This document shows, one piece after another, positions 10,301 to 54,647 of a DNA stretch of 64,000 nt (position 1 is the stretch's first letter; each line of letters opens with the position of its first letter). Origin of the DNA: a virus (Duplodnaviria; Caudoviricetes). The stretch spans positions 32,001 to 96,000 of IMG/VR virus record IMGVR_UViG_3300031998_000024; one strand, given 5' to 3'. The translations under genes were made by a program, and so were the position numbers. The notes below the pieces were generated by a model that saw only the letters and a list, made by a program, of their open reading frames with translations, was not told the origin of the DNA and searched no databases.

Positions 10301-10312
10301 AATTTCAAATCA

Positions 10313-11767: not shown

Positions 11768-11784
11768 AAATAGGAGATTGTAAA

Positions 11785-12630: not shown

Positions 12631-12663
12631 TATCAGTTATAGTCTATTAAAATTCAAAAAATT

Positions 12664-13269: not shown

Positions 13270-13286
13270 AGCAACACTTAATAATT

Positions 13287-13730
13287 ATGACTGCCCAACC
13301 AAGTTCAAATCAAGGATATGTTCCGCGCACTTATGACCAAGTTGTTGCTATAATTAATGAAACGCTTACTGGTCGTGAGGATGGTCACGAGATATTACCT
13401 GAAGAACATGAAAGTATGGCGAGAGCGATACTTGATTATGCTCGTTCAACTCAAACCAGCGGTTCATGTCCGTTAATGGGATTTGCCGATACAAAAACAG
13501 TTCCGCAGGTAACTAATGCTATGCGTTGTTTTTATGTTTCATTGGTTGGTAATAATCAAACAATGACATTTTCTAATTTTAGGGATAATTTAGGCAATTC
13601 TATAGAAGTTGATACCGATGAATTTGAAATTAAAATCGTTATCCTAATGTGGAATACATCATATTGGGAAGCGATGGAAACATCTTTGGATTTTGCTGAC
13701 TTGATAAGATTAAATATTGAAAATTCATAA
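13287..13730 (+). CDS. hypothetical (probable virion) protein
   Basis: ORF with A-rich start context in structural region. Confidence 0.5.
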   Translation: MTAQPSSNQGYVPRTYDQVVAIINETLTGREDGHEILPEEHESMARAILDYARSTQTSGSCPLMGFADTKTVPQVTNAMRCFYVSLVGNNQTMTFSNFRDNLGNSIEVDTDEFEIKIVILMWNTSYWEAMETSLDFADLIRLNIENS

Positions 13731-13742
13731 ACACATTACAAA

Positions 13743-14669
13743 ATGGATAAGCAACAATATGTTAGCGTAGGCAACATCATCGAACAAGAGCGTTTGCGCC
13801 GTCAGGCTCAAATTTCTAAGGGTATTCAATCAAACCCGATAGACCATATTGAAAAAGCCTACAATGAAGATTTCGGTGGAAATCTTGAAAAGGGATTTGA
13901 AGATGAAAATTTAATTCGCTTTGCCAGCGATATTTCTGAATTCAATAAAGCAGAAACGGAATTTGCTCTTCATAAGATTCAGCGTCAAATGAATGCTGAC
14001 CCTGAAAGTGAACTTTTGAAATCAATGCGTACTATTGCTCTTAATCATATCAATGATATTGAGAAGGGTGTTTACGCTGATACTCCAGAGAATCGCAAAC
14101 TTGGAAGAGTTGGTAAGCAATACGGAGGTAAGGGTAGCCGTGGCGGTAAGGTTCATGAAACACAATGGGAACAAGCCGCTAAATGGGATGATGCTTATGA
14201 ACAGCATTATAAGGAAAAACATCTTATGATTGATTCAAGCGGTTATCCTGCTAATAATCACCCCAAGGTTGAGCGTTTGAGAGTTATTAGCCTGAAGGGT
14301 GATAAAGCAACTCCTGAAGAGAAAAAGGAAGCAAAGGAAATTCAGGATGAAATTAAGAAGCAAACTGAAGCCTTCAAGGAAAGTGCAAAAGATTATGGTT
14401 TGAGACAAATATCTAAGACCGCTGAATCTTTTAGTAAGTATGGTCCAAGAGTTGGTGTAAACAAGATGTCTAAAAAGATGTTGGATAAGGTTGGCGCCAA
14501 TTTCGGAGTTACTTATAGCAAGGGTGATTACAATGTTGAGGCTATGTGCTATAAGGATAATGATGGTAGCGAGGTTTGGTCTGTCTATGAAGATAAAGAG
14601 GGTGGTAAGGATAAAGAGTTTGATAACGAGAAAGATGCTGTGAAATTTTTTGGTAAGTTGATAGTTTGA
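13743..14669 (+). CDS. putative internal head protein, paralogous N-terminus to 12664..13269
   Basis: Six hydrophobic-x-K-[ASG] motifs in first 110 aa, then the shared tag. Confidence 0.5.
   Translation: MDKQQYVSVGNIIEQERLRRQAQISKGIQSNPIDHIEKAYNEDFGGNLEKGFEDENLIRFASDISEFNKAETEFALHKIQRQMNADPESELLKSMRTIALNHINDIEKGVYADTPENRKLGRVGKQYGGKGSRGGKVHETQWEQAAKWDDAYEQHYKEKHLMIDSSGYPANNHPKVERLRVISLKGDKATPEEKKEAKEIQDEIKKQTEAFKESAKDYGLRQISKTAESFSKYGPRVGVNKMSKKMLDKVGANFGVTYSKGDYNVEAMCYKDNDGSEVWSVYEDKEGGKDKEFDNEKDAVKFFGKLIV
14067..14147 (+). repeat. 81-nt coding module, copy 2
   Basis: GVYADTPENRKLGRVGKQYGGKGSRGG. Confidence 0.9.
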
Positions 14670-21313: not shown

Positions 21314-22018
21314 ATGAAAGTTTTTGCAATTCAAATTACATTAAACGGAAATCCTGAAAGTATCTTCATAAAAACCAATGCTGATGCGTCTAAGGTAAAG
21401 AATTTTACAATTATTGATGTAATTAAACCTAACGGAATTGGTGATTTGCCGATACGCGCTGGTTTGGTAATGAATTACTCAGAGTTGCTTGATAAAATCG
21501 CTTTGAGTGATGCTATGGGATTGATTTCTGTTTCTGCCGTTAAGGTTCAAGACGGTGACGATACCGATGTTATTACAAGTGAACTACCTACTATTAAAAC
21601 AGTTACTGTTTCTGTTAGCAATACTGGGGCGATTCTGAAAATAAACGGAAAACGGGTTGTTGGATTGACTTGGGTCGGTTATTTACACGCTGGTGAATCT
21701 GTGACTTATGAGGCTTCAAAGAACGGTTATGTTACACAATCAGACACTTTGACTGTTAGTTCGTCTAACATTACAGAAAGTATTACTTTGGTAGAGTTGA
21801 AACATGTTAGCATTTCTGTTACTAATGAAGGTGCTACTTTGAAAATTGATAATGTAGCGCAAAGCGGTTTAAGTTGGGAGGGTGATGTAGCGGTTGGTGA
21901 TTCTGTTGATTATGAAGCATCACTTGAAGGTTATACGACGCAATCGGGTACTGTGAGCGTTACGGATGCTGCAACTGTTTCAGACCTAACTGTTGAAATA
22001 AAATTAGTTTCTGCGTAA
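21314..22018 (+). CDS. surface/decoration protein with two PEGA/Ig-like repeats
   Basis: Tandem repeats GAILKING...YEASKNGYVTQS and GATLKIDN...YEASLEGYTTQS. Confidence 0.6.
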   Translation: MKVFAIQITLNGNPESIFIKTNADASKVKNFTIIDVIKPNGIGDLPIRAGLVMNYSELLDKIALSDAMGLISVSAVKVQDGDDTDVITSELPTIKTVTVSVSNTGAILKINGKRVVGLTWVGYLHAGESVTYEASKNGYVTQSDTLTVSSSNITESITLVELKHVSISVTNEGATLKIDNVAQSGLSWEGDVAVGDSVDYEASLEGYTTQSGTVSVTDAATVSDLTVEIKLVSA

Positions 22019-22053
22019 ACATACCTTTGTTTGAGAATATTTTTCATTTGATT

Positions 22054-22084
22054 TCGGCAGGGCATTCGTGTTCTGCCGATTTTT
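22054..22084 (+). terminator. intrinsic terminator
   Basis: TCGGCAGGGCA-TTCG-TGTTCTGCCGA plus T-run. Confidence 0.85.
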
Positions 22085-22146
22085 ATTTTTAATAAACAAG
22101 TGTTTCAGATATAAATTGAAAAAGTATAAATAAATAGAATTGTAAA

Positions 22147-23916
22147 ATGCCAAGTTACGCAGACCAATTGAAAGCAGTAGATATGGCTGAGCAGAAACTC
22201 ATGGCTAAGAGATTCCGACTGATAGAAAAAGCAGCTAAATCAGATAATCCAACGGATATGATTATGGCTGCTCAAGTTGTCGATAGGATTCAGAAAAAGT
22301 CGAGTAATGAAGCAAAGGCTTATTTGATAGACCCGTTGCAATTTAGTGCTAATTTAGGGTATAAGGATAAAATCTTTTCACTTACATACACCACTCTCAG
22401 GAGAATGGCGAAAACGCCAATCATAAATTCTATTATCAAAACCCGTAAGAATCAGATAGCAGACTTTGCAGAGCCTCAGGCTGATAGATACAATACAGGT
22501 TTTGTTATCAGAAAGAAACCGATAGGAGGTGTTGAACAAAAGATGGATAATAAGGATAGAAAAATTGCTAATGCTATTACGGATTTTATTCTTAATTGCG
22601 GAGGCAGTAATTCTTGGACGAGTGATGATTTTGATTCCTTTATAAGAAAGATTGTTGAAGATTCCTTAACATTTGACCAAATGACATTTGAATGTATAAG
22701 GAATAGAAGGGGTAAACTTGAATATTTTTTAGCAACCGATGCTTCAACATTCCGAATTGCTGAAAGTGCTTTTAGGTCTGATTATGATAATGATTTCTTT
22801 CATAGACTTGGTTCAGGAGTTTACGCTGATGAAAATTTGAATAACTTGAATAAAAAGATAAATGGTTATTATCCTCAATATGTTCAGGTTTATCAAAACG
22901 CGGTTGTTAATGAATTCTATCCTTGGGAATTATGTTTTGGTGTTAGAAATCCATCAACTTGGATAAACGCTAATGGTTACGGATGTAGTGAGTTAGAAGA
23001 TTTGATTAATGTAATTACATCATTACTTTGGGGTGATGAATACAATCGTAGATTCTTCAGTCAAGGTTCAGCACCGAAGGGATTGTTAAGGATTAAGGGA
23101 GGTATGAATGAAAAGGCTATGCAACAATTTAAGCAACAGTGGCAAGCCATGATTTCAGGTGTTATGCAATCTTGGAAAACTCCAGTAGTAGAAGCGGATG
23201 TTGATTGGATAGATTTGCAAAAGAATAACCGCGATATGGAGTACAACTCCTGGATGGAGTATTTGATAAAACTTGCTTGTGCTATCTATTCAATTGACCC
23301 CACGGAAATAGGTTGGGACATTTCACGCTCAGCTGGAAATTCAGGACTTTATGAAGCATCTCAAGCAGAGCGTTTACAACATTCAAAAGACAAGGGGTTG
23401 TATCCTATTTTGAAATTTATCCAAAGAAAACTTAATAAGTATATCGTTGAACAAATCAATCCTGAATATGAATTTGTGTTTATGGGTTTGAATGGTATGA
23501 CGATTGAAAAAGAGTTGGATATGGATATTAAGAAAATCGGTTCATTTGCTACTGTGAATGAAATCCGTGAAAAGTGGGATATGAAGAAGATTGATGATAT
23601 TGGAGATATTATTGAAAATTCAGTTTATTTCCAAGCATATAATCAAAAGAAACAAGCGGAAATGCAACAGCAACAGCAGCAAGGAGGCTTTGGAGGAGGT
23701 TTTGAGGATTACGAAAATGAGGGTGGTGAAGAAGATGATAATTGGAATCCGTTTGAAGATTACGAAAGCAATGACGAGGGTGGTGGAAACGAGAGTGAGG
23801 AACAGCCTTCAGAAGAAAACGAAGAGGGTAATACAGAAAATGAAGAAAAAGCCGTTAGCAATGTTTTCGTAAAGGCTTTTGAAAATTACTTAGAACAAGA
23901 AATAAATAAAGGGTAA
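22147..23916 (+). CDS. portal protein (SPO1/Twort-like)
   Basis: IIKTRKNQI, FIRKIVEDSLTFDQ, YGCSELE, YNRRFFSQGSAPKGLL, DMEY..WMEYLIK...IDPTEIG, SKDKGLYP. Confidence 0.9.
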   Translation: MPSYADQLKAVDMAEQKLMAKRFRLIEKAAKSDNPTDMIMAAQVVDRIQKKSSNEAKAYLIDPLQFSANLGYKDKIFSLTYTTLRRMAKTPIINSIIKTRKNQIADFAEPQADRYNTGFVIRKKPIGGVEQKMDNKDRKIANAITDFILNCGGSNSWTSDDFDSFIRKIVEDSLTFDQMTFECIRNRRGKLEYFLATDASTFRIAESAFRSDYDNDFFHRLGSGVYADENLNNLNKKINGYYPQYVQVYQNAVVNEFYPWELCFGVRNPSTWINANGYGCSELEDLINVITSLLWGDEYNRRFFSQGSAPKGLLRIKGGMNEKAMQQFKQQWQAMISGVMQSWKTPVVEADVDWIDLQKNNRDMEYNSWMEYLIKLACAIYSIDPTEIGWDISRSAGNSGLYEASQAERLQHSKDKGLYPILKFIQRKLNKYIVEQINPEYEFVFMGLNGMTIEKELDMDIKKIGSFATVNEIREKWDMKKIDDIGDIIENSVYFQAYNQKKQAEMQQQQQQGGFGGGFEDYENEGGEEDDNWNPFEDYESNDEGGGNESEEQPSEENEEGNTENEEKAVSNVFVKAFENYLEQEINKG

Positions 23917-28022: not shown

Positions 28023-28199
28023 ATGGCTAAACATAATCATGATAAGGATTCTCATTTCATACCAAGTCCGCATAAAGTTGTTACTGGGTATGAAAATGCT
28101 TTTATCAGCGATTGGAATAATACACTTTCAGCCGCTGTTGGCGATGTTTTGAAATATATAGCAAAAGTTACATCTGAAAATATTAAACAAAATGGATGA
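28023..28199 (+). CDS. 58-aa hypothetical protein not in ORF track
   Basis: MAKHNHDKDSHFIPSPHK...ENIKQNG; fills the gap and overlaps the next start. Confidence 0.6.
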   Translation: MAKHNHDKDSHFIPSPHKVVTGYENAFISDWNNTLSAAVGDVLKYIAKVTSENIKQNG

Positions 28200-29355
28200 C
28201 ATTATTAGACAAATACCTATCAGCGATAAAGAGGAGGCTGAATGCATATTAAAGGCAATTGATACCGATATAATGTTTGATGAGTTAATTAAGGCTCATA
28301 ATGTCGGTGATTTATTTTTCCAAAACGGAAAGACCTATGTTTGGACTGAATACGCTCCAGGAAAATTTGATTGGCATGTTTTGAAAAACAATAGAGTTGT
28401 TCGTGGTAGCGGTATCAATGGTCTTCATGGTAAAAAGGCTTTGGAAAAGGCTTTTTCCGATATTGATAAGGGATTTACCGATAAAAGTAAAATGCTGTTG
28501 CGTCGCACTCCTAATAGGCATTGGCGTCTGTTTTACGATGGTGATGATATAGGTATGACGATAGATGGAAGCAGTATAACCGAATCTGAATTGCGTGAAG
28601 CTGATGTTGTTTATCAAGATAAGAAGGTTGTTGATAATTTCGATTCTTTGAAAGATTACATGGAATTTTCAAGTTCTGATGATGTTTATTTCGTTCAGAT
28701 AATTAAGCGTTGGAAAGATAATAAGGATAAACCAGATGCTGATAAATGGAAGGCAGAGGGAAGACAGAAGGGTTCATATCATTCGGGTGCTGAATATTTG
28801 AATTATTGGCTGATACATTCCACTGATGAATTAGAATCTTTGAAAGACGATATTATGAAGGTTTGCGGATACAACAATGCAAGAGCCTACATAACTATCA
28901 ATAGCAGAAAACAGAGTCAAGTAAATCAATACATTGGTCAATTTAAGAGCCGCTTTTCAGACCCGAATGACCCAAGAGTTAAGAATGCTGAAGCGATACT
29001 TTATGGTATGCCTAAGACTGGACCAAATTGGCGCAATGAGCGTTTAAGAGTTTTGCTTGATATAGATACAACGAGTGATAAGATTGTAAACATTAATGGT
29101 AAAACCGTCAATGTTTGGGATGAAACAGAAAGACGATTGAAAGCATTAGGAATTAAGGTGGCTGCTCGTTACGAAACACCTTCAGGTGGTTTACATCTTA
29201 TTCTTAATAATAAGAATAATCGCAACCTTCGTGATTTTTACAGAGGTTTGTCTGATTTTGACGGAGGTAGAAATTTAGGTGTTACCGCTACAGTTCATCC
29301 ATCTGATGATACAAAGATGATTCTTTATTCTAATGTTGATACAGCAGGATATTAA
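28192..29355 (+). CDS. tagged putative head protein with AEP/Prim-Pol-like domain
   Basis: RVLLDID (DxD) and ETPSGGLHLI motifs; N-terminal KAHNVGD...WTEY.PGKFDW tag. Confidence 0.6.
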   Translation: MDDIIRQIPISDKEEAECILKAIDTDIMFDELIKAHNVGDLFFQNGKTYVWTEYAPGKFDWHVLKNNRVVRGSGINGLHGKKALEKAFSDIDKGFTDKSKMLLRRTPNRHWRLFYDGDDIGMTIDGSSITESELREADVVYQDKKVVDNFDSLKDYMEFSSSDDVYFVQIIKRWKDNKDKPDADKWKAEGRQKGSYHSGAEYLNYWLIHSTDELESLKDDIMKVCGYNNARAYITINSRKQSQVNQYIGQFKSRFSDPNDPRVKNAEAILYGMPKTGPNWRNERLRVLLDIDTTSDKIVNINGKTVNVWDETERRLKALGIKVAARYETPSGGLHLILNNKNNRNLRDFYRGLSDFDGGRNLGVTATVHPSDDTKMILYSNVDTAGY

Positions 29356-29366
29356 GATAGTTTGAC

Positions 29367-30836
29367 ATGGTTTTATCTCAAGCACAAATTGATGATATTG
29401 TTGCTATACTTCAGCAACATCAATTAACATTTATCGCTAAACAGTTGGGTGTTAATTATCTATTAGCAACTGATAGGGCTATTCTTGTTGCTCATGGAGT
29501 TGATTTAAGTAAGTTCGCAAATTCTCAAGGAATAATAGAACAAGCGTATTTATTTGGTTTACTTTCACAAGCAATGGATGATAAACGAGCAAAGAATATG
29601 ACTTATGCTCAATTCAAGAAGTTTATCAAGTCAGGTCAGTTTGTTCCGCTTACGGATGAAGAGGAATTTGTGCTTGAGCAAGTTAAAAACCAGTCATACA
29701 ACGACATTAGTGGTTTAGGCAGTAAGATTATACAAGGCACTAAAAATATCGTTGTACGGGCAAATTTAAGAACACAGAATAATATAAGGAATATAATCAA
29801 AAACAAGGCTATTGATGCTGTGAAATTCCGTCAATCTGCTGCAAAAATGGCTTCTGAAATAGGTCATGCTACAGATGATTGGGAAAGAGATTTTTTGAGG
29901 ATTTCCTATTATGTACTTCAGAATGCTTATAATTACGGAAGGGCAAGGTCTATTTACAGAGAACATGGAGAAGATGCTGAAGTTTATTTCGATATCTTAA
30001 AGGGTGCTTGTAAACATTGTCGTGAATTGTATCTAAAAGACCCTGATGATGAAAATAGTGAGCCGATTGTTTTTAAGTTAAAGGATGTTCTTGAAAATGG
30101 AAATAATATTGGTAGAAAAGTAGCAGATTGGTTGCCAACTGTTTCTCCAATACATCCTTATTGTCGTTGTAATATACGATTCAAAGACCCGAATATGGAA
30201 TGGGATGAAGAAACCTTATCATTTACCAAACCAAGGGTCTATAAACCTAAAAATAAAAAGTTACAAGGTGTTAAGTTAGATATTAAGGTAACAAAATCTG
30301 ACGATGACGAATTAAATAAAGAGAGTTTCAAACAGCGTTTAGAAAATGCTAAATCTGAAACAAATACTGAACCAACTGAAGCAGAAATTAAGGCTGGAAA
30401 CTATAAGAAGGGTCATGTATCATTCGGAGGTTATAATTTCGTGATTGAGAATCCAAAGGGAAGTGAAAGAAGCGGAGTTGATAAGGATGGTAAGCGTTGG
30501 AGTATTACGATGAATAATACATATGGATATTTCCTTGGAATAATCGGTAAGGATAAAGACCATATTGATGCGTTTATCAACGATAATGCTGATTTAGATA
30601 ATTTCCGTGGTAAGATTTATGTTATTGACCAGGTTAATAAAGATGGTAGTTTTGATGAACATAAAATAATGTATGGATTTAATTCTATGCGTGAAGCAAA
30701 GGCTGCTTATTTATCAAATTACGAAAAAGGTTGGAAGGGATTAGGTCGTATAACAGCTGCTCCTAAGCCAGTATTTGATAGGTGGATGAAGCGAAGTAAA
30801 AGAAAACTAAAACCATTTAGTTCGTATCAAAGTTAA
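29367..30836 (+). CDS. MuF/SPP1 gp7-like head protein fused to InPase domain
   Basis: ACKHC and PIHPYCRC (MuF); PTEAEIKAGNYKKGH...IENPKGS.RSG...YGY...GKDKDHID...DEHK (InPase of polyvalent proteins). Confidence 0.85.
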   Translation: MVLSQAQIDDIVAILQQHQLTFIAKQLGVNYLLATDRAILVAHGVDLSKFANSQGIIEQAYLFGLLSQAMDDKRAKNMTYAQFKKFIKSGQFVPLTDEEEFVLEQVKNQSYNDISGLGSKIIQGTKNIVVRANLRTQNNIRNIIKNKAIDAVKFRQSAAKMASEIGHATDDWERDFLRISYYVLQNAYNYGRARSIYREHGEDAEVYFDILKGACKHCRELYLKDPDDENSEPIVFKLKDVLENGNNIGRKVADWLPTVSPIHPYCRCNIRFKDPNMEWDEETLSFTKPRVYKPKNKKLQGVKLDIKVTKSDDDELNKESFKQRLENAKSETNTEPTEAEIKAGNYKKGHVSFGGYNFVIENPKGSERSGVDKDGKRWSITMNNTYGYFLGIIGKDKDHIDAFINDNADLDNFRGKIYVIDQVNKDGSFDEHKIMYGFNSMREAKAAYLSNYEKGWKGLGRITAAPKPVFDRWMKRSKRKLKPFSSYQS

Positions 30837-30933: not shown

Positions 30934-31623
30934 ATGAAGAAAAGTAATAAAGAAAAAAGTTATCTGATTATCCAGCCTCATTCTGACGATGCTTTGTTTA
31001 GCGTTGGTCATCTTGTTCTTTCAGAACATAATGTTTCAATTCTTACTGTTGAGAATAATGCTAAAAGAATAAGTGAGGATGAAAAACTTTATCAGTTTAT
31101 CGGAAAAAATTGGAATCATTTAGATGTAGATTTTGATGACCAATCTTTCTATGAGTTTTATAAACATAATAAGGATTTGAACGAAAGTAATGGACATGAT
31201 TTCATGATTTCTTATTTTGGCGAAGAAAAGATGTCTAAAATAAAGAATGCTGTAAATAAGTTTGTTGAAAAATTTGTTTCTCAAAATGAAGATAGTATTA
31301 TTTATTTGCCTTGGGGTATTGGACATCCGTTTCATCTATTTATCAGAATTTGCGTTGAAAGAAAGTTTGCGAATAAAGATGGTGTGAGATTGCGTTTTTA
31401 TCGTGATTTTCCGCATTCATATAAGCGTAGAGCGCAAGCGCAGGTCGCTGAACAACTTCATGATTTTGTATTGTATAAAAGTTATGATGTTAAGGATTTT
31501 GCCGATATTAAATGGGAATTGGCTAAAAAGTTCTATAAGAGTCAAAGTGGTTTGCTTTGGTTTGAACAAGGATATATCAAAAAGAATTTACCTGAAGAAG
31601 TGTATGTGAGAAAACCGAGTTAA
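30934..31623 (+). CDS. PIG-L/LmbE family N-deacetylase
   Basis: IIQPHSDDA, R..ED, PWGIGHPFH, YRDFPH, YKSQ motifs. Confidence 0.85.
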   Translation: MKKSNKEKSYLIIQPHSDDALFSVGHLVLSEHNVSILTVENNAKRISEDEKLYQFIGKNWNHLDVDFDDQSFYEFYKHNKDLNESNGHDFMISYFGEEKMSKIKNAVNKFVEKFVSQNEDSIIYLPWGIGHPFHLFIRICVERKFANKDGVRLRFYRDFPHSYKRRAQAQVAEQLHDFVLYKSYDVKDFADIKWELAKKFYKSQSGLLWFEQGYIKKNLPEEVYVRKPS

Positions 31624-31624
31624 T

Positions 31625-33070
31625 ATGAAAATTTTAATATCATCATTTACGATAGCAAAACAAGGTGGGATAGTTCAATATATCCATTCGATGATTCAAG
31701 CCTTTAAGGAATTGGGTCATGATATAGATATTGTTGAACTTGCTCCTAATCGTATTACAGAAAGTGCATACAAGAGTAAGTTTGAATCCATAAAGAGTGG
31801 GGAATATCAACGCAAGATAGTTCCCCATTCTCAGTCAGGAGGTTACTGCTTTGATGAATCAAGCGGTTATTTTTTCAACACTTATTACGGATATTTTTTG
31901 CCACCGAGTAATAAAATTTGCGTATTTGATTCTGATGCTGTGGAGCGTTGGTATAAACTTGTTTCAGATGTAGATATTATTCTTTGGAATTTTATGCCAA
32001 CTAAAACCCGTGAATGGCAAAAGAAGGGTACAAAATTTGATTATTGGTGGAAGTTTTTTGATTTACCTAAATCTGTTAAGCAGGTTTTTCTTACTCACGA
32101 TGCTTATTTTAATATAAGAGCAAGTAATGTAACTGCATTGAAAAAGAAAATTTTGTTTCTTGGTTGCGCTCATTTAGCCGCTTATCAATGTTGTTCTGAA
32201 ATTGGTATAAGAAGAACATTGTTGTTGAATCCAAGATATATAGAGAAAAACGCAAGTATGCCTGTTGTTTCTTTTAATGACAGAAAAACAGATTTCTTTG
32301 CTGCTCATATGTTTAAGCCTATGAAACATATGGAAGAGTTAATTGCCGCTATTCCGTATGTTAATAAGGGTGATGAAACTTATTCTTGTATGGTTGCTGG
32401 AACTGGCATAGAGTATTCTTACATGACCAGTGAAGATAAAATAAAACCATGTTATTTATGCAGTAAGAAGCGTGACCCTAATTTACCAGATAAACTTGAT
32501 GGTAAAATTAGTTTATGGAATAGAGCCTTAACATTTGGTATGGATTATAGAGGTCAAATGAGCGGTGACGATGTTTATAAACAATTATTGAATACTAAAT
32601 TTGCTATTGACCCATCTTGGGCAACTCACTATGCTCAATATTGTCGTACTCATATAAACGGCTTTATCATTGAGGCTATGATGTTAGGTGCTTATCCTGT
32701 GTTAAGGGATTACAGAGGATTAGATAAAGCAAATAGCAATGTTTATGACCCATTGTTTGAGAGTATTAATGCTGTAATAATTCCGTGGGATGCTACACCT
32801 AAACAATTTGCTAAAATTTTGAAATCCGCTATTGCTGATATGACACCAAAGCGTTTTTTGAGAGAAACGAAAGAAAATTTCCAAATAGTAAACGAATTAT
32901 TTAATGCTCGTAAAAATGCCGAAGAAATAATTAGATTATGTCGCGGAGGTAAACGATTAGTCAAGGCAGAATTGGAAAAAGGTGTTGATTCAGATAATGT
33001 GAAGAAAATATCCGAAGATATTATGACAAATTTCTTTGGAATTGAATTACCAATCAAATGGCAGAATTAG
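31625..33070 (+). CDS. GT-B fold glycosyltransferase
   Basis: MKILI...GGIVQY...LGHDIDIV; THD; FKPMKH; FAIDPS...IIEAMMLGAYPV. Confidence 0.8.
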   Translation: MKILISSFTIAKQGGIVQYIHSMIQAFKELGHDIDIVELAPNRITESAYKSKFESIKSGEYQRKIVPHSQSGGYCFDESSGYFFNTYYGYFLPPSNKICVFDSDAVERWYKLVSDVDIILWNFMPTKTREWQKKGTKFDYWWKFFDLPKSVKQVFLTHDAYFNIRASNVTALKKKILFLGCAHLAAYQCCSEIGIRRTLLLNPRYIEKNASMPVVSFNDRKTDFFAAHMFKPMKHMEELIAAIPYVNKGDETYSCMVAGTGIEYSYMTSEDKIKPCYLCSKKRDPNLPDKLDGKISLWNRALTFGMDYRGQMSGDDVYKQLLNTKFAIDPSWATHYAQYCRTHINGFIIEAMMLGAYPVLRDYRGLDKANSNVYDPLFESINAVIIPWDATPKQFAKILKSAIADMTPKRFLRETKENFQIVNELFNARKNAEEIIRLCRGGKRLVKAELEKGVDSDNVKKISEDIMTNFFGIELPIKWQN

Positions 33071-35430: not shown

Positions 35431-37935
35431 ATGAAAAAGAGCAGAAAGGCTTTGGAGACAATTGCCCTTGGATATTCTGAGGGCATTGTCTCTGTTGATA
35501 TTTTGATTAAGGCTTGTAATCATTATAAGTTACAAGAGAATCTTGTTGGTAATTTTGAATATGATAAGAAAGTATCAAAGTCTTTATTTGACCAACTTAA
35601 TGGTGTTAAACCTAATAAAGAATTATTGAAAGCAATAGTTCCTGGTCAAACTAAATATGTTGATGGCGTTCTTTATATTTATTCCGCAACCAAACAAGGT
35701 AGTAAAACCGATTACGGATGGCATGTCGCTCAAAAGTCTAAGGTCGGTAAGGGTTCAACGCTTGATGATAAGGCTGCTAAGGCTGCTGAGAGTGCGGTTA
35801 ATGAATTATTCCCAGTAGATATAGCGAGTGTTACTGAAGTTAAGCGTTTAGGCGGTTCAACAGGTGCTAAACTCGTTAAGGATGTTAAGGGTAATGAATA
35901 TGTAATGAAGCGTGTTGATAAGTCTATAAATCCGAAGGGAAATGCTGAGCATATCCGTTCAGAGTATGTGGCCAATATGCTTTATAACATCTTAGGTCAA
36001 CGCACTCCTGATTATGAACTTTATGATGCTGATACCGATGACCCGAAACTTTTAAGCAGATTTATTCCAGGAACAAGACAGCCTAATAGTAGAGATTTTG
36101 CTAAAATGTCTGAAGGCTTTATAGCAGACATTCTTTTGGCTAACTGGGATGTTTATATGAACGACAATTGCTTAATTGATGCTGGTGGTAATGTAATTAG
36201 GGTTGATAATGGCGGTTGTTTAGCGTTTCGTGCTAAGGGTGAATTAAAGTCGCCTCCGTTTGATGGTGATGTGAATCGTACATACCGAGATATGTTGAAC
36301 TACAACAGTTTGTTAGCAAAATATCTTGTTGACGAAAATGTTGTTCAACAGATTGATAACGCTTTGGCTAAGCGTGATGATATTGTTAATTTCTTGAAAG
36401 AATCGGGGGATGATAATTTAGCAAACATCTTTGGACAGAGAATAGATGGATTGAAAACTATTCGTGACCAAATCAATGCTAATATTGCTCGTAAGGCTGC
36501 CTTGGCCGCTGCTAAAGCAGGTAAGATACCTCCGAGAAAACTCATGCCTAAGCAAGAAATGTATCGTGCCTTAGAGGATGATGAGTTAGAGGATGTTTTC
36601 AATGAAGTTGCTCAGATGTGCGGTGGTCAAAAAGATAGAGCGTTGACTAATACAGATTCAACATTCGGTTGGTCTATATTATCACGGATTTGTCAATTAC
36701 GCGGATTTGATGCGAGACCAAAAGTTGTAACAGAAGCGGATTTTTGGAAAGAGGCTGCTAAGGCTGATTTGCCATTAATGTTAAGAGGTAATGCTTCAGG
36801 TGGCGGTAAAACCGCTGGTGAGTATGCTGATATGTTCCGTTATGACGATGTTTGTTTTTATGGAAAGGCAGGAATTTGGGGACAGGGTATTTATGCCCAT
36901 ACGGATGATAAAAACGACAAATGGATTAGGTATCAATCTAAGGCTGATGACTATGACCGCAAAGATGATGTGAATTTACATTCAACGCAAACTAACTATA
37001 AATCAACTCAAGGATATATTGATGCATTTTCTTATGCTGGTAGTAGCGATGAAGGTGTCTTGAAGATACTTTGGGAAAAGGGAGCGAATGTTGTAAATAT
37101 TGAAGACCTTATAAACGAAATTAAGGCTACACCTCCTCAATTGAAGGATAAAAAATTGTTTGCTACAATTCAATCTTTACAAAAACAGTTGAATACTGTT
37201 AAGAGTGAATGGACAAACGCAAAACTTGCTCTTCAGAATATATCTAAAACTATTCAAGATACAGTGCGTAAGAAAATGCACTATGATGAAGATGCTATTG
37301 CTGAGATGTATGACACAATCGATAATACCGATTGGGGAAATCGTAATGCTCAAGGTAAATTTGATTATCCTTCTTATGATGACTTTGTAGTTGGTAAGAT
37401 GGTTGAGTGGGTTACTAAGAATGGCGGTAAGGCTAAGATTGATAAGGATTTTGTTGTATTTGAAATCAATGGTCAAAGAGAATCAATAGCAAGAGAATCT
37501 TGGGAAAATAACGCTATACGAAGAAAAAGTGCTATCACTTCACCATATCATTATCAAGCAGAATTATTTAAGACCTTTATGGAAACAAACTGTATAGGTA
37601 AAGTTCAAAAGGCTATTGATTTTGCTTTGAGACATTCGACTGATGCTACTGCTAAGGCTCAGGCTGAAGCTGATACCAAAGAAAAGGAATATTACAAGAT
37701 TGACGCTGATTTGAAGCAAGCGATGCAGAACAGTGTTAGTGATTCCTTGTATTCATATATTTATAGCAAAGTTAAAGGATTAGGATTGCGTGATAGCGGC
37801 GACAATATGTCAGTCGTTGGTATTTATGCTGCTATGAAGGGATATGATGGTATCTATATTCACAACGGCAATGATTGGAATCATGGCTTTAATGTGATAT
37901 TGAACAGAAGTAAGGTAATAACATCAATGGAGTAA
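35431..37935 (+). CDS. putative head protein: HipA/PI3K-like kinase + ADP-ribosyltransferase-like domain
   Basis: LGGSTGAKL..YVMK, EYVAN.LY, LANWDV..DN, RVDNG (kinase); LMLRG, GIWGQGIY, GYDGI...VILNRS (ART-like). Confidence 0.65.
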   Translation: MKKSRKALETIALGYSEGIVSVDILIKACNHYKLQENLVGNFEYDKKVSKSLFDQLNGVKPNKELLKAIVPGQTKYVDGVLYIYSATKQGSKTDYGWHVAQKSKVGKGSTLDDKAAKAAESAVNELFPVDIASVTEVKRLGGSTGAKLVKDVKGNEYVMKRVDKSINPKGNAEHIRSEYVANMLYNILGQRTPDYELYDADTDDPKLLSRFIPGTRQPNSRDFAKMSEGFIADILLANWDVYMNDNCLIDAGGNVIRVDNGGCLAFRAKGELKSPPFDGDVNRTYRDMLNYNSLLAKYLVDENVVQQIDNALAKRDDIVNFLKESGDDNLANIFGQRIDGLKTIRDQINANIARKAALAAAKAGKIPPRKLMPKQEMYRALEDDELEDVFNEVAQMCGGQKDRALTNTDSTFGWSILSRICQLRGFDARPKVVTEADFWKEAAKADLPLMLRGNASGGGKTAGEYADMFRYDDVCFYGKAGIWGQGIYAHTDDKNDKWIRYQSKADDYDRKDDVNLHSTQTNYKSTQGYIDAFSYAGSSDEGVLKILWEKGANVVNIEDLINEIKATPPQLKDKKLFATIQSLQKQLNTVKSEWTNAKLALQNISKTIQDTVRKKMHYDEDAIAEMYDTIDNTDWGNRNAQGKFDYPSYDDFVVGKMVEWVTKNGGKAKIDKDFVVFEINGQRESIARESWENNAIRRKSAITSPYHYQAELFKTFMETNCIGKVQKAIDFALRHSTDATAKAQAEADTKEKEYYKIDADLKQAMQNSVSDSLYSYIYSKVKGLGLRDSGDNMSVVGIYAAMKGYDGIYIHNGNDWNHGFNVILNRSKVITSME

Positions 37936-38347: not shown

Positions 38348-38378
38348 CAGGCTGGGGTGTAAATTCCAGCCTGTTTTT
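38348..38378 (+). terminator. intrinsic terminator
   Basis: CAGGCTGG/CCAGCCTG stem plus T5. Confidence 0.8.
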
Positions 38379-38421
38379 ATTTTATCAGGGTTAATACTTT
38401 AAGCATTAAATCATTATAATT

Positions 38422-48939: not shown

Positions 48940-50148
48940 ATGATTGAAAAGAATTTAGAAGTTTTTGAGCCTGAAAATGGGTTTGTTCAAACAGAGAATT
49001 TTGCTAAACAGTATCCAAGAATTAACAATTTTATTCTCAATAACCAAGATGGTTGGGATGAAAGTCGTGATGGTAAGGTTAGAGAAATTTTGGATTTCAA
49101 AACAACGCTGCTTAATCCTTATAAAAGGATGGTTGGTGGACAAAAAAGAAACATTAATGTGTTTTTTCTACTTGCTGAAGCGATGTGGATTTTTGCGGGT
49201 CATAAGGATGTTTCGTTTCTCACAGCATTCAATAAAAAGATGGGCGATTTTTCGGATGACGGTAATGTATTCCACGCGCCATACGGATTCCGTTTGCGTC
49301 ACTGGGGAGTTCGTTCTGAAGACAAATTCGTTGAAGAAAATATGCACATTGCTCAAGGGTATGACCAAATTTCTGATGCGGTAAAGATTTTTCAAAATAA
49401 TCCTAATAGCCGTCAGGTTGTTCTTGCTATTTGGAATCCTGATTTTGACCTTGGTACTATTACTAAGGATATTCCGTGCAACGATATTGTTATAATGAAA
49501 ATCCGTAATGGTAAACTTTATACAACTGTTCAGAATCGTAGTAATGATTTACATTGGGGATTGCCTACTAATATTTTCCAGTTTGGATTTTTGAGCGAGA
49601 TTTTGGCTAATGTTCTTGGTGTTACTCTTGGAACGCAAACACATAATTCTCATAGCCTACATATTTATGATTGGAATCAGATAGCGTTTACAATGCAATC
49701 TGAATACGAAAGCGGTAATCAAACAACGCTTTATGAAATTCCTAATATAGTCGCTATTCCAATGGATATTGATTTCGATAATCAGATTGCTGGAAATAGA
49801 TTGAGGGAGGTTGATATTATGATTGAAAGAATTATATCAAACCTTACCAAAATAATTAATGGCGTAGAGCCTAATGAAGAGGAGGTAGCAGATACGATTA
49901 GTAAGTCAAAATGGTTTACTTGCGTTTATAGGATGCTTGAAATTTATTTGAATTACAAAAAGGATATTGCTAAGGATTTCAGTGCTGAAGAAAAGAAGGA
50001 TTGCGCTAAATTTGCCTTGGATTCTATTTACAGCGTTCTTATAAGTAAAGAAATGGAAAATTGGGATATTGGTACATTAGCGGTTAATTTCTTTGCTCAT
50101 AGAATAGGCGATGAACCAAAACCAGAAATTTTAATTGGTAAGTTATGA
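48940..50148 (+). CDS. thymidylate synthase-family enzyme, probable dUMP hydroxymethylase
   Basis: FSDDG...APYG.R, SRQVV..IW, KDIPCN (catalytic Cys), NRSND..WGLPTN (Asn implies dUMP specificity), SLHIY. Confidence 0.8.
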   Translation: MIEKNLEVFEPENGFVQTENFAKQYPRINNFILNNQDGWDESRDGKVREILDFKTTLLNPYKRMVGGQKRNINVFFLLAEAMWIFAGHKDVSFLTAFNKKMGDFSDDGNVFHAPYGFRLRHWGVRSEDKFVEENMHIAQGYDQISDAVKIFQNNPNSRQVVLAIWNPDFDLGTITKDIPCNDIVIMKIRNGKLYTTVQNRSNDLHWGLPTNIFQFGFLSEILANVLGVTLGTQTHNSHSLHIYDWNQIAFTMQSEYESGNQTTLYEIPNIVAIPMDIDFDNQIAGNRLREVDIMIERIISNLTKIINGVEPNEEEVADTISKSKWFTCVYRMLEIYLNYKKDIAKDFSAEEKKDCAKFALDSIYSVLISKEMENWDIGTLAVNFFAHRIGDEPKPEILIGKL

Positions 50149-51821
50149 TTGACGAAAATCTCAGAAATTGGGTTTCAGATAACAAAATGATAATATCGGA
50201 GTCATCGCAAGGCGATTCCGATATTATTTTGATTGATGGTGTAGGTAAGTTTCTTTATATACATCCATTTGGCGGTAATATTATTGATGAAGATTTCGGG
50301 TTTATAATGTCGGATGAAGAATTTGAATTATGCGACAATAAACAGGTTGATTATATACTATTTGAATTTGGTGGTAAGTTTTATTATTCACCGCTGAAAG
50401 AAGATAGGAGTAAGTACAACGAAATAATTTATAAACCTGAATTCAATGATTTCAAATATCTTGGTAAGTGTTCTGAAGATTTAGTTATGCCGTTTGTTCA
50501 TCTTGGTGTTCACGATGAGTATGAGATGATGAATGGTAGCGGTAATGCTAAATTATGGGCTCAAAAGGCTGCTTTTTTAGGATATAAGGCTTTGGGACTT
50601 TCTGATTGTAATACCTTAGCAGGAACACTTGCGTTTCAGGAGGCTTGCGATAAATATAAATTACAACCAGTTATTGGTGAAACCGTAATTGTTGCTAAAA
50701 ATTATAATCCCGATAGTTCGGTGATGCCTGAAACATTTGAATTGAAGTTATTCGTTACTAATGATGTCGGTTGGAAAAATCTTTTATTTATTAGCAAGGA
50801 AATAAATGTGAAATACAAGGGTTTTATTCCCGATGAAATACTTTTCCAATACGCTGATGGATTAGTGGCAGTAATACCACCCGCAAGTCTTTTTAACAAC
50901 ATTAGTAGTGATATAGATTCTACTAATAAATTGATAAAGTTGTATAAGAAACATTTTGTCGATTTATATTATCAAATTGATACAGTTGAATACAATTCTA
51001 AAACGCTTTTCAAGAAACATCTTTCAGCAATAGATAGATATTTATGCAATTATCGTAAAAAGATAAAGCCGATTGTTATTAATGATTCTTATTATCTTGA
51101 TGCGGAAGAACATGAATTAAAATCTATGTTGAATAAAATTACTGGTAAGGTTAATGCTGAATCTGAAGACCAGTATTTCAAAAGCGTTGGAGATACGCTT
51201 GCTTCATATGACGATTGGTTTGATGATGTAGAGCCTTTATTTGATGCTATTATTGTCGGTATAGAAAACACAAATAAATTAGCAGAACAATGTAATTTCC
51301 GTATCAACAATTCAGATAGAAAAATCCCTAAGTTTGAAGTTGATGACCCTGAAGCGTTTTTCTTTGATGTTCTTCAAAAGGGTATAAATGACAAGTTAGT
51401 TGGCAAGATTCCTGAAAAGGATATGGAGCAATATATGAAAAGAATAGAGTTTGAATGTTCAATCATTGTTCCTAATGATTTGTGTTCATATTTACTTATT
51501 CTTTGGGATATTATTCAGTGGTGTAAATCTGAGGGATATATGGTTGGTCCAGGTCGTGGTTCTGTTTGTGGTTCGTTAGTAGCGTATTGTATGGACATTA
51601 CTCAAGTTGACCCTATTCCGAATGGTTTGTATTTTGAAAGATTTTTGAATATTGCTCGTATAGCAGCACACCATAGTTATACATTAACAATGGAAGATGG
51701 TTCTGAGTATAAGTTTAATGATGGTGACCGTGTTCCGATAGTTGGCGGAGGTTTTGTTGAAGTTTCTAAGGAAACGAATTGGGATGATTTAGATATTGAT
51801 GTTAAGGCAATAGTTTTATAA
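50145..51821 (+). CDS. dnaE: DNA polymerase III alpha, N-terminal fragment (PHP + start of palm)
   Basis: FVHLGVH PHP start; GPGRGSVCGSLVAY..DITQVDP...FERFLN. Confidence 0.92.
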   Translation: MIDENLRNWVSDNKMIISESSQGDSDIILIDGVGKFLYIHPFGGNIIDEDFGFIMSDEEFELCDNKQVDYILFEFGGKFYYSPLKEDRSKYNEIIYKPEFNDFKYLGKCSEDLVMPFVHLGVHDEYEMMNGSGNAKLWAQKAAFLGYKALGLSDCNTLAGTLAFQEACDKYKLQPVIGETVIVAKNYNPDSSVMPETFELKLFVTNDVGWKNLLFISKEINVKYKGFIPDEILFQYADGLVAVIPPASLFNNISSDIDSTNKLIKLYKKHFVDLYYQIDTVEYNSKTLFKKHLSAIDRYLCNYRKKIKPIVINDSYYLDAEEHELKSMLNKITGKVNAESEDQYFKSVGDTLASYDDWFDDVEPLFDAIIVGIENTNKLAEQCNFRINNSDRKIPKFEVDDPEAFFFDVLQKGINDKLVGKIPEKDMEQYMKRIEFECSIIVPNDLCSYLLILWDIIQWCKSEGYMVGPGRGSVCGSLVAYCMDITQVDPIPNGLYFERFLNIARIAAHHSYTLTMEDGSEYKFNDGDRVPIVGGGFVEVSKETNWDDLDIDVKAIVL

Positions 51822-51832: not shown

Positions 51833-52564
51833 ATGAATTTTACTTGTTTTAATATGGAGTGGGAGCCTACCATGGAAGGTGGTAGGTTAATACACACAAA
51901 ACAACCTTGGATGTGGTATGACGCAAGTCAAATTTGGGTTAGTGAAAATGAAATGAAGTTATGGGTTGAGAAGAAACCTAATACAATACATCATTGGGAT
52001 GGTAAAACATATAATCCGAAAATTGCGGTTGGAATAGCGAGGTCTGTGAAAACATTCCTTCGCGGTAACTTTTCAGCAGAAATAATGATGCCAAGCGGTA
52101 AAAATCTATGGCCATCGTTTTGGTTAGTTGGAGCAGATAAAGATTGGCCATTATGCGGTGAAATAGATATTGTAGAATCATGGAGTAATCGTTGCAGTAG
52201 TTATTTTAGATTCACTATTCCACAGCCTCCGTATTTAGTGCCATCGTGGAAAACTACTACAAATGTGCATTGGTCTGAGAATGGTGAATATAAATATACT
52301 GGTTCACGGAGTTTGCCGTTAATATTTTCTTTGAAGAATCCAAGTAATACATTTGTTAAATACGAATTGATTTGGGAATCGGATAGAATTTTGTTTTTAG
52401 TTGATGGTAAAACAATTCGTTGTTATGGTTATGATGTAGCGAAACATTTGAGTAATTCACTGCAGAGAGTTATTTTCAATAATTGGGTTCAAGGTGAAGA
52501 TTGTTCGTTAAAACAACCAATGATTATACGGAATTTTAAATATGAACCATTAGTATGTATTTGA
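51833..52564 (+). CDS. glycoside hydrolase family 16 protein
   Basis: WPSFWL...WP.CGEIDIVE (ExDxxE), YELIW...FLVDG. Confidence 0.85.
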   Translation: MNFTCFNMEWEPTMEGGRLIHTKQPWMWYDASQIWVSENEMKLWVEKKPNTIHHWDGKTYNPKIAVGIARSVKTFLRGNFSAEIMMPSGKNLWPSFWLVGADKDWPLCGEIDIVESWSNRCSSYFRFTIPQPPYLVPSWKTTTNVHWSENGEYKYTGSRSLPLIFSLKNPSNTFVKYELIWESDRILFLVDGKTIRCYGYDVAKHLSNSLQRVIFNNWVQGEDCSLKQPMIIRNFKYEPLVCI

Positions 52565-52565
52565 T

Positions 52566-54647
52566 ATGAAAGTTAGGTCTGTAAAGGTTAAAAAATTCTA
52601 TCAAGATACACCCGATATAGATGTCGATTTTGAGCCAGTTGCTCGTGACGCTGTGAAGGATTATATTGTTCGCAAATACGGAAGTGCTTGGTCTTGTAGT
52701 GTATCTACTTACACACGTGTGAAGTTGAAAACCGCCATAAAGGATTTTGGTAAGGTTGAGGGATTGCCGTTTGATTTGACCAATAAGGTTACAAAGGATA
52801 TTGATGACCAAATTGAATACACTTGGGGTGATTTAATAGAATTTGGTTCAAGGTCTAAAACGCTTTATAAATTCATTCAGGAAAATCCTGAAATAATACA
52901 TTTGACCAAATATGCTTTGATGATACCGAAGGCTGAAAGTATTCACCCTTCTGCTTATATAATAGTACCTAAACAAAATTCAGATGGAGAGAAAACCGAT
53001 ATTTTCAATCTAATGCCTATGAAGGAAATTGATGGGCTTTTAGTTTGTGAATGGGAGGGTAAGTACACTGAAAGTTCTTTGTTCTTGAAAGAGGATATTT
53101 TAGGACTATCTCAATTGACTAAGATACACAACATCATGAAGTTAATTGAGAAACATTATGGCACAAAAATAGATGTTACGCAAATTCCGTTTGACGACAA
53201 AGAGGTTTTTAAGTTCTTCAAAAGAGGATGGTGTGAAGATGTATTTCAGTTCGGAACAACTGGTTTGATGGGTTATTGTCGTCAGGTTAAACCAAGTCAA
53301 TTATCGGATTTAATTGCTATGACCGCTTTATTCAGACCTGGTCCAATGGAGAGTAACGCTCATCAAGATTTTGCCGATATTAAGAATGGAAGGAAAAAAC
53401 CTAAATACGATTATGGTATTCAAAATATAACAGAGGAAACATATTCACTTTTGGTGTACCAAGAGCAAATGATGTCTATCATTCACCAGTTAGGAGGGTT
53501 ATCGCTTATTGATGCTGAAAATGCGAGAAAATACATCAAGAAAAAGGCTCATAAGGAATTGAATGAGTTGGGTGATAGATTTATAGCAGGTGCTATTAGC
53601 AATGGATGTCCTGAAAAAGAGGCTAAGAAGATTTGGGATAAGATGAACGCTTTTAGTTCTTACAGTTTCAATAAGAGTCATGCTGCTGCTTATAGTTATA
53701 TTTCATATTGGTCAATGTGGTTTAAGGTTAATTATCCGCTTGAATTTTGGACTGTTTCTTTGAGCGAAAGTAAGGAAACTGAAATACCATATAGATTAGC
53801 TGAAATGAAAAAGGCTGGAGTTGAGGTTGAAGTAAGACCGCCTGATGTTAATTATTCAACCGATTATTTCACTTGTGACCCCAAGGAGCAACGAATATTC
53901 TTCAGTTTGAATAAGATTAAGGGTGTTGGTGATGTAGCGGTTGCTTCATTATTGAAAGAGCGTAACGAACATGGTCAGTTTTTTGATTTCGATGAGTTTC
54001 TTTCAAGAGTTCCTGGTAAGGTGAATAAGACTGTTATCAAGGGTTTGATAGTTGGCGGAGCGTTTGATTTATTGTGTGATATAAAACAACCGCGTGATAG
54101 AAAGAAATTATTAGAGCGTTATTTGATTGATATCAAAAAAGATTCTGAACTACCTGAGCCGTATAATTCACCCGATTCTTTGACTAATGCATTTTGGATT
54201 CAAGAGCAAAAGCGTTTGACTGGTTTTGGTGAAATTGATTACGAAAACTATATAAAGGATTTGATTCCAAATAAGCGGTTTGTAAGTCTTTATGTAGATG
54301 AAAACGAATTTGAAAGAGTTCCTGAAAAGAAGGAGGTTGTACTGGCTGGTAAGTTTTTGTTTTATCGTGAAAGTAATACTAAGAATGGTGTTATGGGTAC
54401 AATACAACTTGATTGTAATAATACCATTATTAATTGCACTATTTGGCCTGATATTTGGCAACTTTATAGGGAAGAAATTGAAGATTACAAGGGTAGGATA
54501 ATAGCATTAAACGGATTCGCTCAGAAGGACAAGTTCAGAAATGAAAAGCGTTTATTTTCAAATGATAGAACAAAAATTTATGTTATTAGTGAGAGTAAGA
54601 CAGCGTTAAATAGATTACAAGAATGGCGTAATTCAAAAAAGATTTAA
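52566..54647 (+). CDS. dnaE: DNA polymerase III alpha, C-terminal fragment
   Basis: PDIDVDF, KEDILGL, VFQF, ALFRPGP, VYQEQMM, YSFNKSHAAAY, OB fold. Confidence 0.95.
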   Translation: MKVRSVKVKKFYQDTPDIDVDFEPVARDAVKDYIVRKYGSAWSCSVSTYTRVKLKTAIKDFGKVEGLPFDLTNKVTKDIDDQIEYTWGDLIEFGSRSKTLYKFIQENPEIIHLTKYALMIPKAESIHPSAYIIVPKQNSDGEKTDIFNLMPMKEIDGLLVCEWEGKYTESSLFLKEDILGLSQLTKIHNIMKLIEKHYGTKIDVTQIPFDDKEVFKFFKRGWCEDVFQFGTTGLMGYCRQVKPSQLSDLIAMTALFRPGPMESNAHQDFADIKNGRKKPKYDYGIQNITEETYSLLVYQEQMMSIIHQLGGLSLIDAENARKYIKKKAHKELNELGDRFIAGAISNGCPEKEAKKIWDKMNAFSSYSFNKSHAAAYSYISYWSMWFKVNYPLEFWTVSLSESKETEIPYRLAEMKKAGVEVEVRPPDVNYSTDYFTCDPKEQRIFFSLNKIKGVGDVAVASLLKERNEHGQFFDFDEFLSRVPGKVNKTVIKGLIVGGAFDLLCDIKQPRDRKKLLERYLIDIKKDSELPEPYNSPDSLTNAFWIQEQKRLTGFGEIDYENYIKDLIPNKRFVSLYVDENEFERVPEKKEVVLAGKFLFYRESNTKNGVMGTIQLDCNNTIINCTIWPDIWQLYREEIEDYKGRIIALNGFAQKDKFRNEKRLFSNDRTKIYVISESKTALNRLQEWRNSKKI

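Follow-up and report, generated by a model that had tools for sequence, protein, structure and literature searches.

A conserved protein of a large tailed phage pairs a CtkA-like kinase domain with a probable divergent ADP-ribosyltransferase domain: a candidate packaged effector

The 64,000-nucleotide stretch of DNA analysed here, which we call the window, covers positions 32,001 to 96,000 of the tailed-phage record IMGVR_UViG_3300031998_000024 and contains the gene for an 834-residue protein, P0001. Our analyses, all of them computational, point to a compact kinase domain in this protein, followed by a C-terminal domain that resembles an ADP-ribosyltransferase (ART) and is interrupted by a long helical insert. 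We propose that P0001 is a two-enzyme effector which the phage, with its genome of about 124 kb, carries in the virion to modify host proteins, and we give this reading as a whole a probability of roughly 0.5. Effectors packaged in the head decide the first minutes of infection, and few have been studied beyond T4 Alt. As a stand-alone kinase-then-ART cassette, compact and highly conserved, P0001 offers a tractable entry point, and together with a candidate partner gene it bears on two questions: whether a dual protein-modifying enzyme is injected by phages of gut Bacteroidota, and whether its activities cooperate.

A preliminary description of this DNA had placed a single open reading frame (ORF) at 35431-37935 on the plus strand, and these positions indeed form an 834-codon frame from an ATG start to a stop. 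The ORF is conserved in sequence, in domain architecture and in gene neighbourhood, well beyond what chance would produce. A homology search found 185 homologues at E <= 0.001; the best 120 of these are almost all full-length, with 39-68% identity, and many lie on phage contigs of 90-126 kb. When custom domain hidden Markov models (HMMs) were run on the fetched proteins, the complete five-part architecture was present in 136 of them. P0001 has no significant match in Pfam, PHROGs or NCBIfam; sequence and profile searches of the PDB returned nothing relevant, and a tblastn search of the C-terminal half against cultured phages nothing useful. The family is large and unstudied. AlphaFold2, with an alignment of 60 sequences as input, modelled the whole protein with a mean predicted local distance difference test score (pLDDT) of 87.8, and a separate model of residues 395-834 has a pLDDT of 93.7; in the 60-sequence alignment, which reaches down to 22% identity, K160, E178, D240, R452, Y488, D806, N825 and R826 are invariant. 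The virus record is complete (123,871 bp, 127-bp terminal repeats, 36% G+C), and the portal proteins nearest to its own come from Chryseobacterium phage MA9V-3 and the Bacteroides thetaiotaomicron DAC phages, with SPO1-like phages next. This kinship makes a host among the Bacteroidota plausible, probably among those of the gut.

We hold a kinase fold for the first domain to be nearly certain from the predicted structure. The AlphaFold and Foldseek comparison that the preliminary description had suggested for this domain returned kinases exclusively from the PDB, and both hallmarks of the protein kinase-like (PKL) superfamily, the bilobal fold and the full set of catalytic motifs, are present. 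All the kinase motifs quoted earlier are in place (LGGSTGA 140-146, YVMK 157-160, ANWDV 237-241, NDN 244-246, VDNG 258-261); together with E178 they provide the Gly loop (140-146, with GGSTGA at 141-146), K160, D240, N244-D245-N246 and D259-N260-G261. As these motif residues are invariant or nearly so both in the P0001 family and in 50 multidomain proteins that share only this domain with it, the kinase is very probably active. It is a compact, CtkA-like atypical kinase whose residues for ATP binding and phosphotransfer are complete (K160, E178, D240, N246, D259), CtkA being the closest solved structure at 16% identity and with no detectable sequence-profile match to P0001. The domain is also widespread: an exhaustive profile search of a representative library yielded 5442 proteins at E <= 0.001, most of which match profile positions of approximately 130-345 alone, that is, the kinase. 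The kinase had been likened to HipA and PI3K; fold and motifs hold, and for the kinship to HipA there are sub-threshold matches only: the Pfam models HipA_C and HipA_2 have no match in P0001 at E <= 0.1 and matches below the cut-off in the family (HipA_C in 13 of 32 members, best E 0.0078; HipA_2 in 6 of 32, best E 0.0014). Identity with Kinase-PolyVal (Pfam PF18762) was rejected, the whole phage genome holding no candidate at E <= 10.

The C-terminal domain probably belongs to the ART superfamily, an assignment that draws on profile comparisons. The ART-like motifs of the preliminary description are all found (LMLRG 449-453, GIWGQGIYAH 481-490, GYDGI 804-808, VILNRS 822-827). The part before the insert contains RGFDARP (424-430), strand 1 with R452, strand 2 with Y488 (in GIYAH), an A..YA helix and strands 3 and 4. 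In the model of residues 395-834, a strand, a helix and a strand ending in R452-G453 are followed by a helix and the strand with Y488, then by the A..YA helix and two strands, then by a helix and the insert, and finally by a helix ending in K-G-Y-D806 and three strands, a predicted order in keeping with an ART core. Once the insert is taken out, the core aligns over its full length with the second repeat of P0185 (hhalign probability 98.5%, E 3e-15), a protein of 1423 residues in which four such repeats precede a classical ADPrib_exo_Tox domain. The P0185 repeats, in turn, match a set of ART-PolyVal-like domains with E 1.3e-4 across 145 columns and classical ARTs with E 2e-3 over the N-terminal half; the Pfam ART-PolyVal model gives E 2.3e-5 on P0185, its 25.6 bits falling under the cut-off of 31.2.

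The ART-PolyVal-like set consists of 12 aligned, non-redundant domains from 48 viral loci with kinship to P0174, in which the kinase discussed here is combined with a Pfam-significant ART-PolyVal domain. Its conserved positions start with [HR]G in strand 1 (with Arg in 2 of the 12); strand 2 has an aromatic residue and then T or S, and an A..Y helix, an insert that varies, G[YH]DG and, at the end, Q.KSA follow. No acidic residue of the alignment is conserved other than the GYDG Asp, which must accordingly be that of the H-Y-D triad given for the ART-PolyVal clade (Iyer et al. 2017, PMC5512222). The P0001 core aligns with the set weakly (E 0.011-0.017) and collinearly: R452 matches the His, the aromatic position is taken by Y488 and that of the Asp by D806; dozens of family members show sub-threshold matches in the same two registers. 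The aromatic and Asp positions of the triad are present, with alignment support that is weak directly (E 0.011) and moderate through P0185 (E 1.3e-4). At the His position of strand 1, P0001 has R452, so that a basic residue is kept in a variant also seen in 2 of the 12 domains. At G797, A800, G804, D806, N825 and R826, 165-166 of the 166 family hits have the same residue. Among the ESM Atlas neighbours of residues 405-575 are ART-PolyVal (0.86, 0.86 and 0.84), Arr-ms (0.82) and PARP (0.82); all named language-model neighbours are families of the ART superfamily, and by the tool's own calibration they are leads only. From these comparisons we infer that the two separated parts most likely form a divergent ART domain of the ART-PolyVal (H-Y-D) type with R452, Y488 and D806 as its triad.

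Several results weigh against this assignment or do not add to it. The curated Pfam model of ART-PolyVal (PF18760) has no match, even a weak one, in P0001 or in 32 family members, nor does it match anything across the phage genome, and the direct profile-profile score between the P0001 core and ART-PolyVal is weak (E about 0.01). Searches with the model of residues 395-834 by Foldseek (PDB) and VIA-align (wide, second look) recovered no solved ART among their matches, the lists being filled with coiled-coil matches to insert residues 572-769; the ART-like character proposed in the preliminary description is thus borne out by sequence profiles rather than by a matching fold. Stand-alone relatives of the P0185 repeat and of P0266 were sought and essentially none found. 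To our knowledge, the activity of ART-PolyVal itself is without an experimental test in the literature searched. Against 30 classical R-S-E ARTs, finally, the P0001 core scores an hhalign probability of 0.6%. Membership of that clade (Alt/VIP2, C3, iota) we reject: its strand-1 Arg is present as R452, but the S-T-S and (Q/E)xE motifs are not, STS being replaced by Y-A-H (488-490) and ExE by G-F-N (819-821).

In an alternative register, the classical catalytic Glu would fall on N821. The eight commonest residues at this position, which cover 150 of the 166 hits, include no E, D or Q, and beyond them Q may be present in one hit (P0066) at most; in three of the four P0185 repeats, on the other hand, Glu stands at the equivalent position, before the strand "VVLLNRG". 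We regard this register as a minority alternative. A reading of the domain as a dead ART, based on the non-acidic N821, was revised on the evidence of the 12-domain alignment, in which the conserved acidic residue of the clade is the GYDG Asp. As the H-Y-D triad is matched by R452, Y488 and D806, a missing Glu is expected. The preliminary description had found that Glu not obvious and had called the activity uncertain for this reason. The Glu of the R-S-E type is indeed absent, but the doubt arose because the domain had been compared with R-S-E (Alt-like) toxins and is largely resolved once the H-Y-D clade, with its GYDG Asp, becomes the reference. We consider it an even chance that the ART-like domain is active.

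The strongest rival to a two-enzyme protein, which we still find unlikely, is that the kinase is the sole enzyme and that the ART-derived domain, devoid of transferase activity, serves with its insert as a sensor of NAD+ or ADP-ribose or as a target-binding or assembly module. The non-acidic N821 beside the Glu of the P0185 repeats, the replaced STS and the unmatched Pfam ART models would all be understandable on these terms, and an insert of 220 residues could disrupt the loop of the active site. R452, Y488 and D806 are, however, invariant down to 22% identity and sit on the triad positions, a strictness of conservation that points to catalysis more than to a scaffold, and inserts are common at the same site in ART-PolyVal domains.

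The insert itself had been described as exceeding 200 residues and containing long helices, which agrees with what we find: approximately 220 residues (573-794) split the C-terminal domain, and the AlphaFold2 model shows two long helical hairpins together with a small alpha/beta unit of a helix and a three-stranded sheet. Structure searches matched it to generic coiled coils only. The ART-PolyVal domains of five other loci (L007, L014, L045, L046 and L047) have inserts of 62-110 residues at the same point, and the site therefore tolerates insertions; among the ART-PolyVal-like domains compared, the insert of the P0001 family is the longest. Gp67 of Gordonia phage GodonK has the same ART split, with approximately 240 residues between the halves. 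In classical ARTs, the target-recognition (ARTT) loop lies in this loop region. Since the insert stands just before the presumed catalytic Asp, at the place of the ARTT loop, we propose that it may take part in target recognition or docking.

The succession of a kinase and an ART recurs outside the P0001 family. Of 99 kinase-bearing proteins from outside the family, 24 proved in an iterative search to contain a classical ART, which is C-terminal to the kinase in 23 of the 24 and usually at the extreme end of the protein. Escherichia phage ECML-606-1 encodes a 2253-residue protein with the kinase at approximately 1685-1867 and an R-S-E ART at approximately 2087-2232, and the metagenomic protein P0140 (3416 residues) consists of five tandem cassettes, each with this kinase domain and then a classical R-S-E ART. 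These cassettes resemble P0001 in the kinase family and in the ART being C-terminal to it, within 24-470 residues; they differ in that their ARTs are canonical R-S-E domains matched by Pfam ADPrib_exo_Tox, whereas the slot in P0001 is occupied by an H-Y-D-type domain with a large insert. The H-Y-D type is found together with the kinase elsewhere, too: in P0174, introduced above, and in an ORF of L007, in which the kinase (64-276) is followed, 62 residues on, by a split ART-PolyVal domain. That ARTs of two distinct clades occur in the same slot speaks for a functional rather than an accidental pairing. GodonK gp67 (L001, 1479 residues), annotated as hypothetical, adjoins the portal gene directly downstream and combines the kinase (94-247) with a ParB-like "DGHHR" near residue 580 and a split ART-like domain (1093-1180 and a C-terminal AGYDGY).

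A bolder and rather doubtful extension is that kinase and ART form a coupled two-step unit, in which, for example, phosphorylation primes, or is primed by, the ADP-ribosylation of one target or, in another form, the kinase phosphorylates a group derived from NAD+ or ADP-ribose. Such coupling would explain the same order of kinase and ART across two ART clades and the five-fold repeat in P0140; if true, a coupled, packaged kinase-then-ART cassette would represent a new kind of host-modifying chemistry.

We lean towards P0001 being packaged and injected, which we infer from the head-module position of its gene and from the fusion of its kinase domain to MuF and portal domains in relatives. The 50 multidomain proteins with the kinase include 24 with Phage_Mu_F and 6 with a portal domain (30 of the 50 together), and 14 have a Pfam ART. 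Within the block of head genes on the portal side, no large gene comes after that of P0001: the portal gene (22147) is followed by several small genes, ORF 28192, the gene of a protein with an InPase domain (29367), deacetylase-like and glycosyltransferase-like genes, the gene of a P-loop protein (33130), the P0001 gene and a 126-residue gene (37941), after which come a terminator-like hairpin, a dUTPase gene and replication genes. Here the P0001 gene lies downstream of the portal gene, and in relatives its homologues lie in the interval from portal to capsid. Three relatives (L003, L005 and L006) keep the trio of P-loop gene, P0001 homologue and small gene, followed by a GH108 lysin gene and an SU10-type capsid gene; in a distant one (L004), the P0001 homologue stands between the portal and capsid genes.

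Both immediate neighbours of P0001 are conserved with it. Homologues of gene 37941 lie directly downstream in L003, L005 and L006 (E 1e-15, 24-40% identity) and share the motif KKPSNL.PF.G, and its product has no family match in Pfam, PHROGs or NCBIfam. Judged by this conservation, gene 37941 is a candidate for an immunity protein, a chaperone or a regulator, the last being what the preliminary description had in mind; a small ORF usually comes after MuF toxin genes, too (Jamet et al. 2017, PMC5576092). Upstream, the product of ORF 33130 carries a Walker A motif (GGAGAGKT), a Walker B-like VFDDSD, a Q-rich low-complexity stretch and an N-terminal module, "EKA..VGD..W.WTEYKPGKFDW". A homologue of it is encoded directly upstream of the P0001 homologue in L003 (E 1e-32); L005 and L006 have a gene of like size at this position, and the L006 protein contains both the N-terminal module, hereafter the tag, and a P-loop.

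The tag provides a possible route into the capsid. The invariant residues in the N-terminal region of the P0001 family are K67, A68, P71, G72 and W97; residues 64-126 of P0001 resemble residues 31-91 of ORF 28192 (pairwise E 2e-5), and an HMM of the family's tag matches ORF 28192 at E 0.007 among the 707 ORFs of the genome. A Trp-containing small beta module is common to ORF 28192-29355, ORF 33130 (both on the plus strand) and a third ORF outside the window (genome position 106360-107142): jackhmmer started from ORF 28192 recovers the other two, and the proteins are otherwise unrelated. The copy in P0001 is more diverged than those in ORF 33130 and in the ORF outside the window. That the module is a shared packaging or docking tag is a reasonable if unproven suggestion.

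As we envisage it, P0001 would be made late, alongside the head proteins, and packed into the capsid, possibly by means of its N-terminal region, whose beta module recurs in two neighbouring proteins. Together with the DNA it would pass into the cell, where, early in infection, the kinase would phosphorylate and the ART domain ADP-ribosylate host proteins, with the helical insert contributing target recognition or docking. In the producing cell, the product of gene 37941 might act as a cognate inhibitor or chaperone that restrains or chaperones the effector.

Some features of the protein and its setting do not favour such a route. P0001 has no MuF or portal domain in Pfam scans, and Phage_Mu_F is not found in the rest of its family either; its gene adjoins the replication module, with the capsid gene 45 kb upstream (genome position 21806-23275, outside the window); and the similarity of the N-terminal tag is modest. 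We had considered ORF 10313-11767 as the capsid gene and rejected it in favour of the one just given. It is conceivable, if improbable, that P0001 is not packaged and acts late in the infected cell, for example in assembly, or that it modifies nucleotides or DNA together with the products of neighbouring genes. The missing MuF and portal domains would suit this alternative, as would the position of the gene behind a PIG-L-like and GT-B-like pair and the P-loop protein, the markers of hypermodification encoded by relatives (e.g., HMUDK_hel in L004) and the fact that the kinase-like and ART superfamilies both include enzymes acting on small molecules or DNA. Yet L006 keeps the trio though the deacetylase/glycosyltransferase pair is not adjacent to it, the kinase domain is joined to MuF or portal domains in the 30 of 50 relatives mentioned, and the nearest solved structure is that of CtkA, a Ser/Thr protein kinase which a mobile element exports (PMC5536186). 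That P0001 is a structural minor head protein with vestigial enzyme-like domains, as its head-module location, long coiled-coil insert and weak Pfam matches to scaffold-like and coiled-coil families might suggest, is very improbable given that all kinase catalytic residues and the ART triad are invariant while their surroundings have diverged to 22-45% identity.

The concept of packaged effectors is already known, and P0001 would be a variation on it. Packaged polyvalent effectors are rich in ARTs (Iyer et al. 2017, PMC5512222). Like polyvalent and MuF effectors, in which unrelated enzymatic domains, most commonly an ART, share one polypeptide encoded with head genes, P0001 combines unrelated domains, a kinase and an ART-like one, and is encoded with virion genes; unlike them, it has no MuF, portal or metallopeptidase domain, and its kinase is not Kinase-PolyVal. 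The described MuF toxins come nearly all from temperate phages, whereas the genome here is 124 kb long, with terminal repeats and its own DNA polymerase. From ART-PolyVal (Tox-ART-HYD2, PF18760), with which it shares collinear motifs through the GYDG Asp and the terminal strands as well as the insert site, the C-terminal domain differs in the Arg of strand 1, the insert of approximately 220 residues and the RGFDARP helix N-terminal to the domain. CtkA (JHP0940) of Helicobacter pylori is a Ser/Thr kinase encoded on the integrative and conjugative element (ICE) tfs3 and a likely substrate of its secretion system (PMC5536186), and the nearest solved relative of the P0001 kinase is thus also one delivered by a mobile element; in contrast to P0001, it is a single-domain protein delivered by type IV secretion rather than a product of a phage head module. 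T4 Alt, a packaged ART that is injected with the DNA and modifies host RNA polymerase and other proteins, and T7 gp0.7, a phage kinase whose substrates are host translation factors (both PMC5512222), are functional analogies only, and P0001 has no detected homology to them. Alt is an ART of the R-S-E clade and has the STS and ExE motifs missing from P0001, gp0.7 is made early and is not packaged, and neither combines both activities.

In the literature examined, a CtkA-like kinase family as a module linked to MuF and portal domains, and its ordered pairing with ARTs of two clades, appear to be undescribed; the same appears to hold for an R-Y-D variant with a 220-residue insert and for a stand-alone form with conserved flanking partners. 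We know of no biochemical test, in phages, of either the CtkA-like kinase family or the ART-PolyVal clade.

Table 1. The P0001 gene, the parts of its product and adjoining features; nucleotide positions are those of the window, residues those of P0001.
Feature	Position	Strand	Residues	Basis or remark
Kinase and ART-like gene (P0001), 834 aa	35431..37935	+		ORF call, end-to-end homologue conservation, AlphaFold2 model
N-terminal region: three helices, then small beta module	35431..35805	+	1-125	AlphaFold2 secondary structure
Small beta module after invariant K67-A68; candidate shared tag	35620-35742	+	64-104	Secondary structure, conservation
Atypical protein-kinase-like domain	35815..36492	+	129-354	Fold, motifs
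Helical linker with invariant R369, M377, Y378	36493..36657	+	355-409	Alignment, AlphaFold2 model
ART-like domain, N-terminal part	36658..37146	+	410-572	hhalign to P0185 repeat 2, ART-PolyVal alignment, ESM Atlas
Insert in ART-like domain, ~220 aa	37147..37812	+	573-794	AlphaFold2 secondary structure
ART-like domain, C-terminal part: helix ending KGYDGI (D806), three strands including FNVILNRS	37813..37932	+	795-834	
Upstream P-loop protein, 759 aa	33130..35409	+		No family match
Small downstream gene, 126 aa	37941..38321	+		Starts 5 nt past the P0001 stop
Terminator-like hairpin (38348-38373), 11-bp stem with 6 G-C pairs, T-run	38348..38383	+		

The strong hairpin at 38348-38383 marks the border between the head/effector block and the replication block and closes the transcription unit; a promoter-like site follows at 38391-38420. 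Upstream of the P-loop gene, the pair formed by the deacetylase-like (PIG-L-like, 30934-31623) and glycosyltransferase-like (GT-B-like, 31625-33070) genes, both on the plus strand, has weak Pfam matches (Glycos_transf_1 and Glyco_transf_4, E about 0.04). Identity to L005 is 68% for the glycosyltransferase, 46% for P0001 and 40% for the small protein, which fits an effector and a partner evolving faster than the neighbouring glycosyltransferase. The gene at 29367-30836 (plus strand) encodes 489 residues, the C-terminal 135 of which are a Pfam InPase domain (E 3e-49). InPase domains are typical of polyvalent and minor-head proteins, and the product is likely, by its sequence, to be a second packaged enzyme of the same gene block.

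Further along the window, the DNA polymerase is apparently split between two plus-strand ORFs, 50145-51821 (558 residues, covering positions 40-440 of phrog_405) and 52566-54647 (693 residues, positions 440-1087). The 243-residue ORF between them (51833-52564, plus strand) is possibly a mobile endonuclease or an intervening element. Outside the window, genome positions 7662-14087 (plus strand) hold an open frame of 2142 codons.

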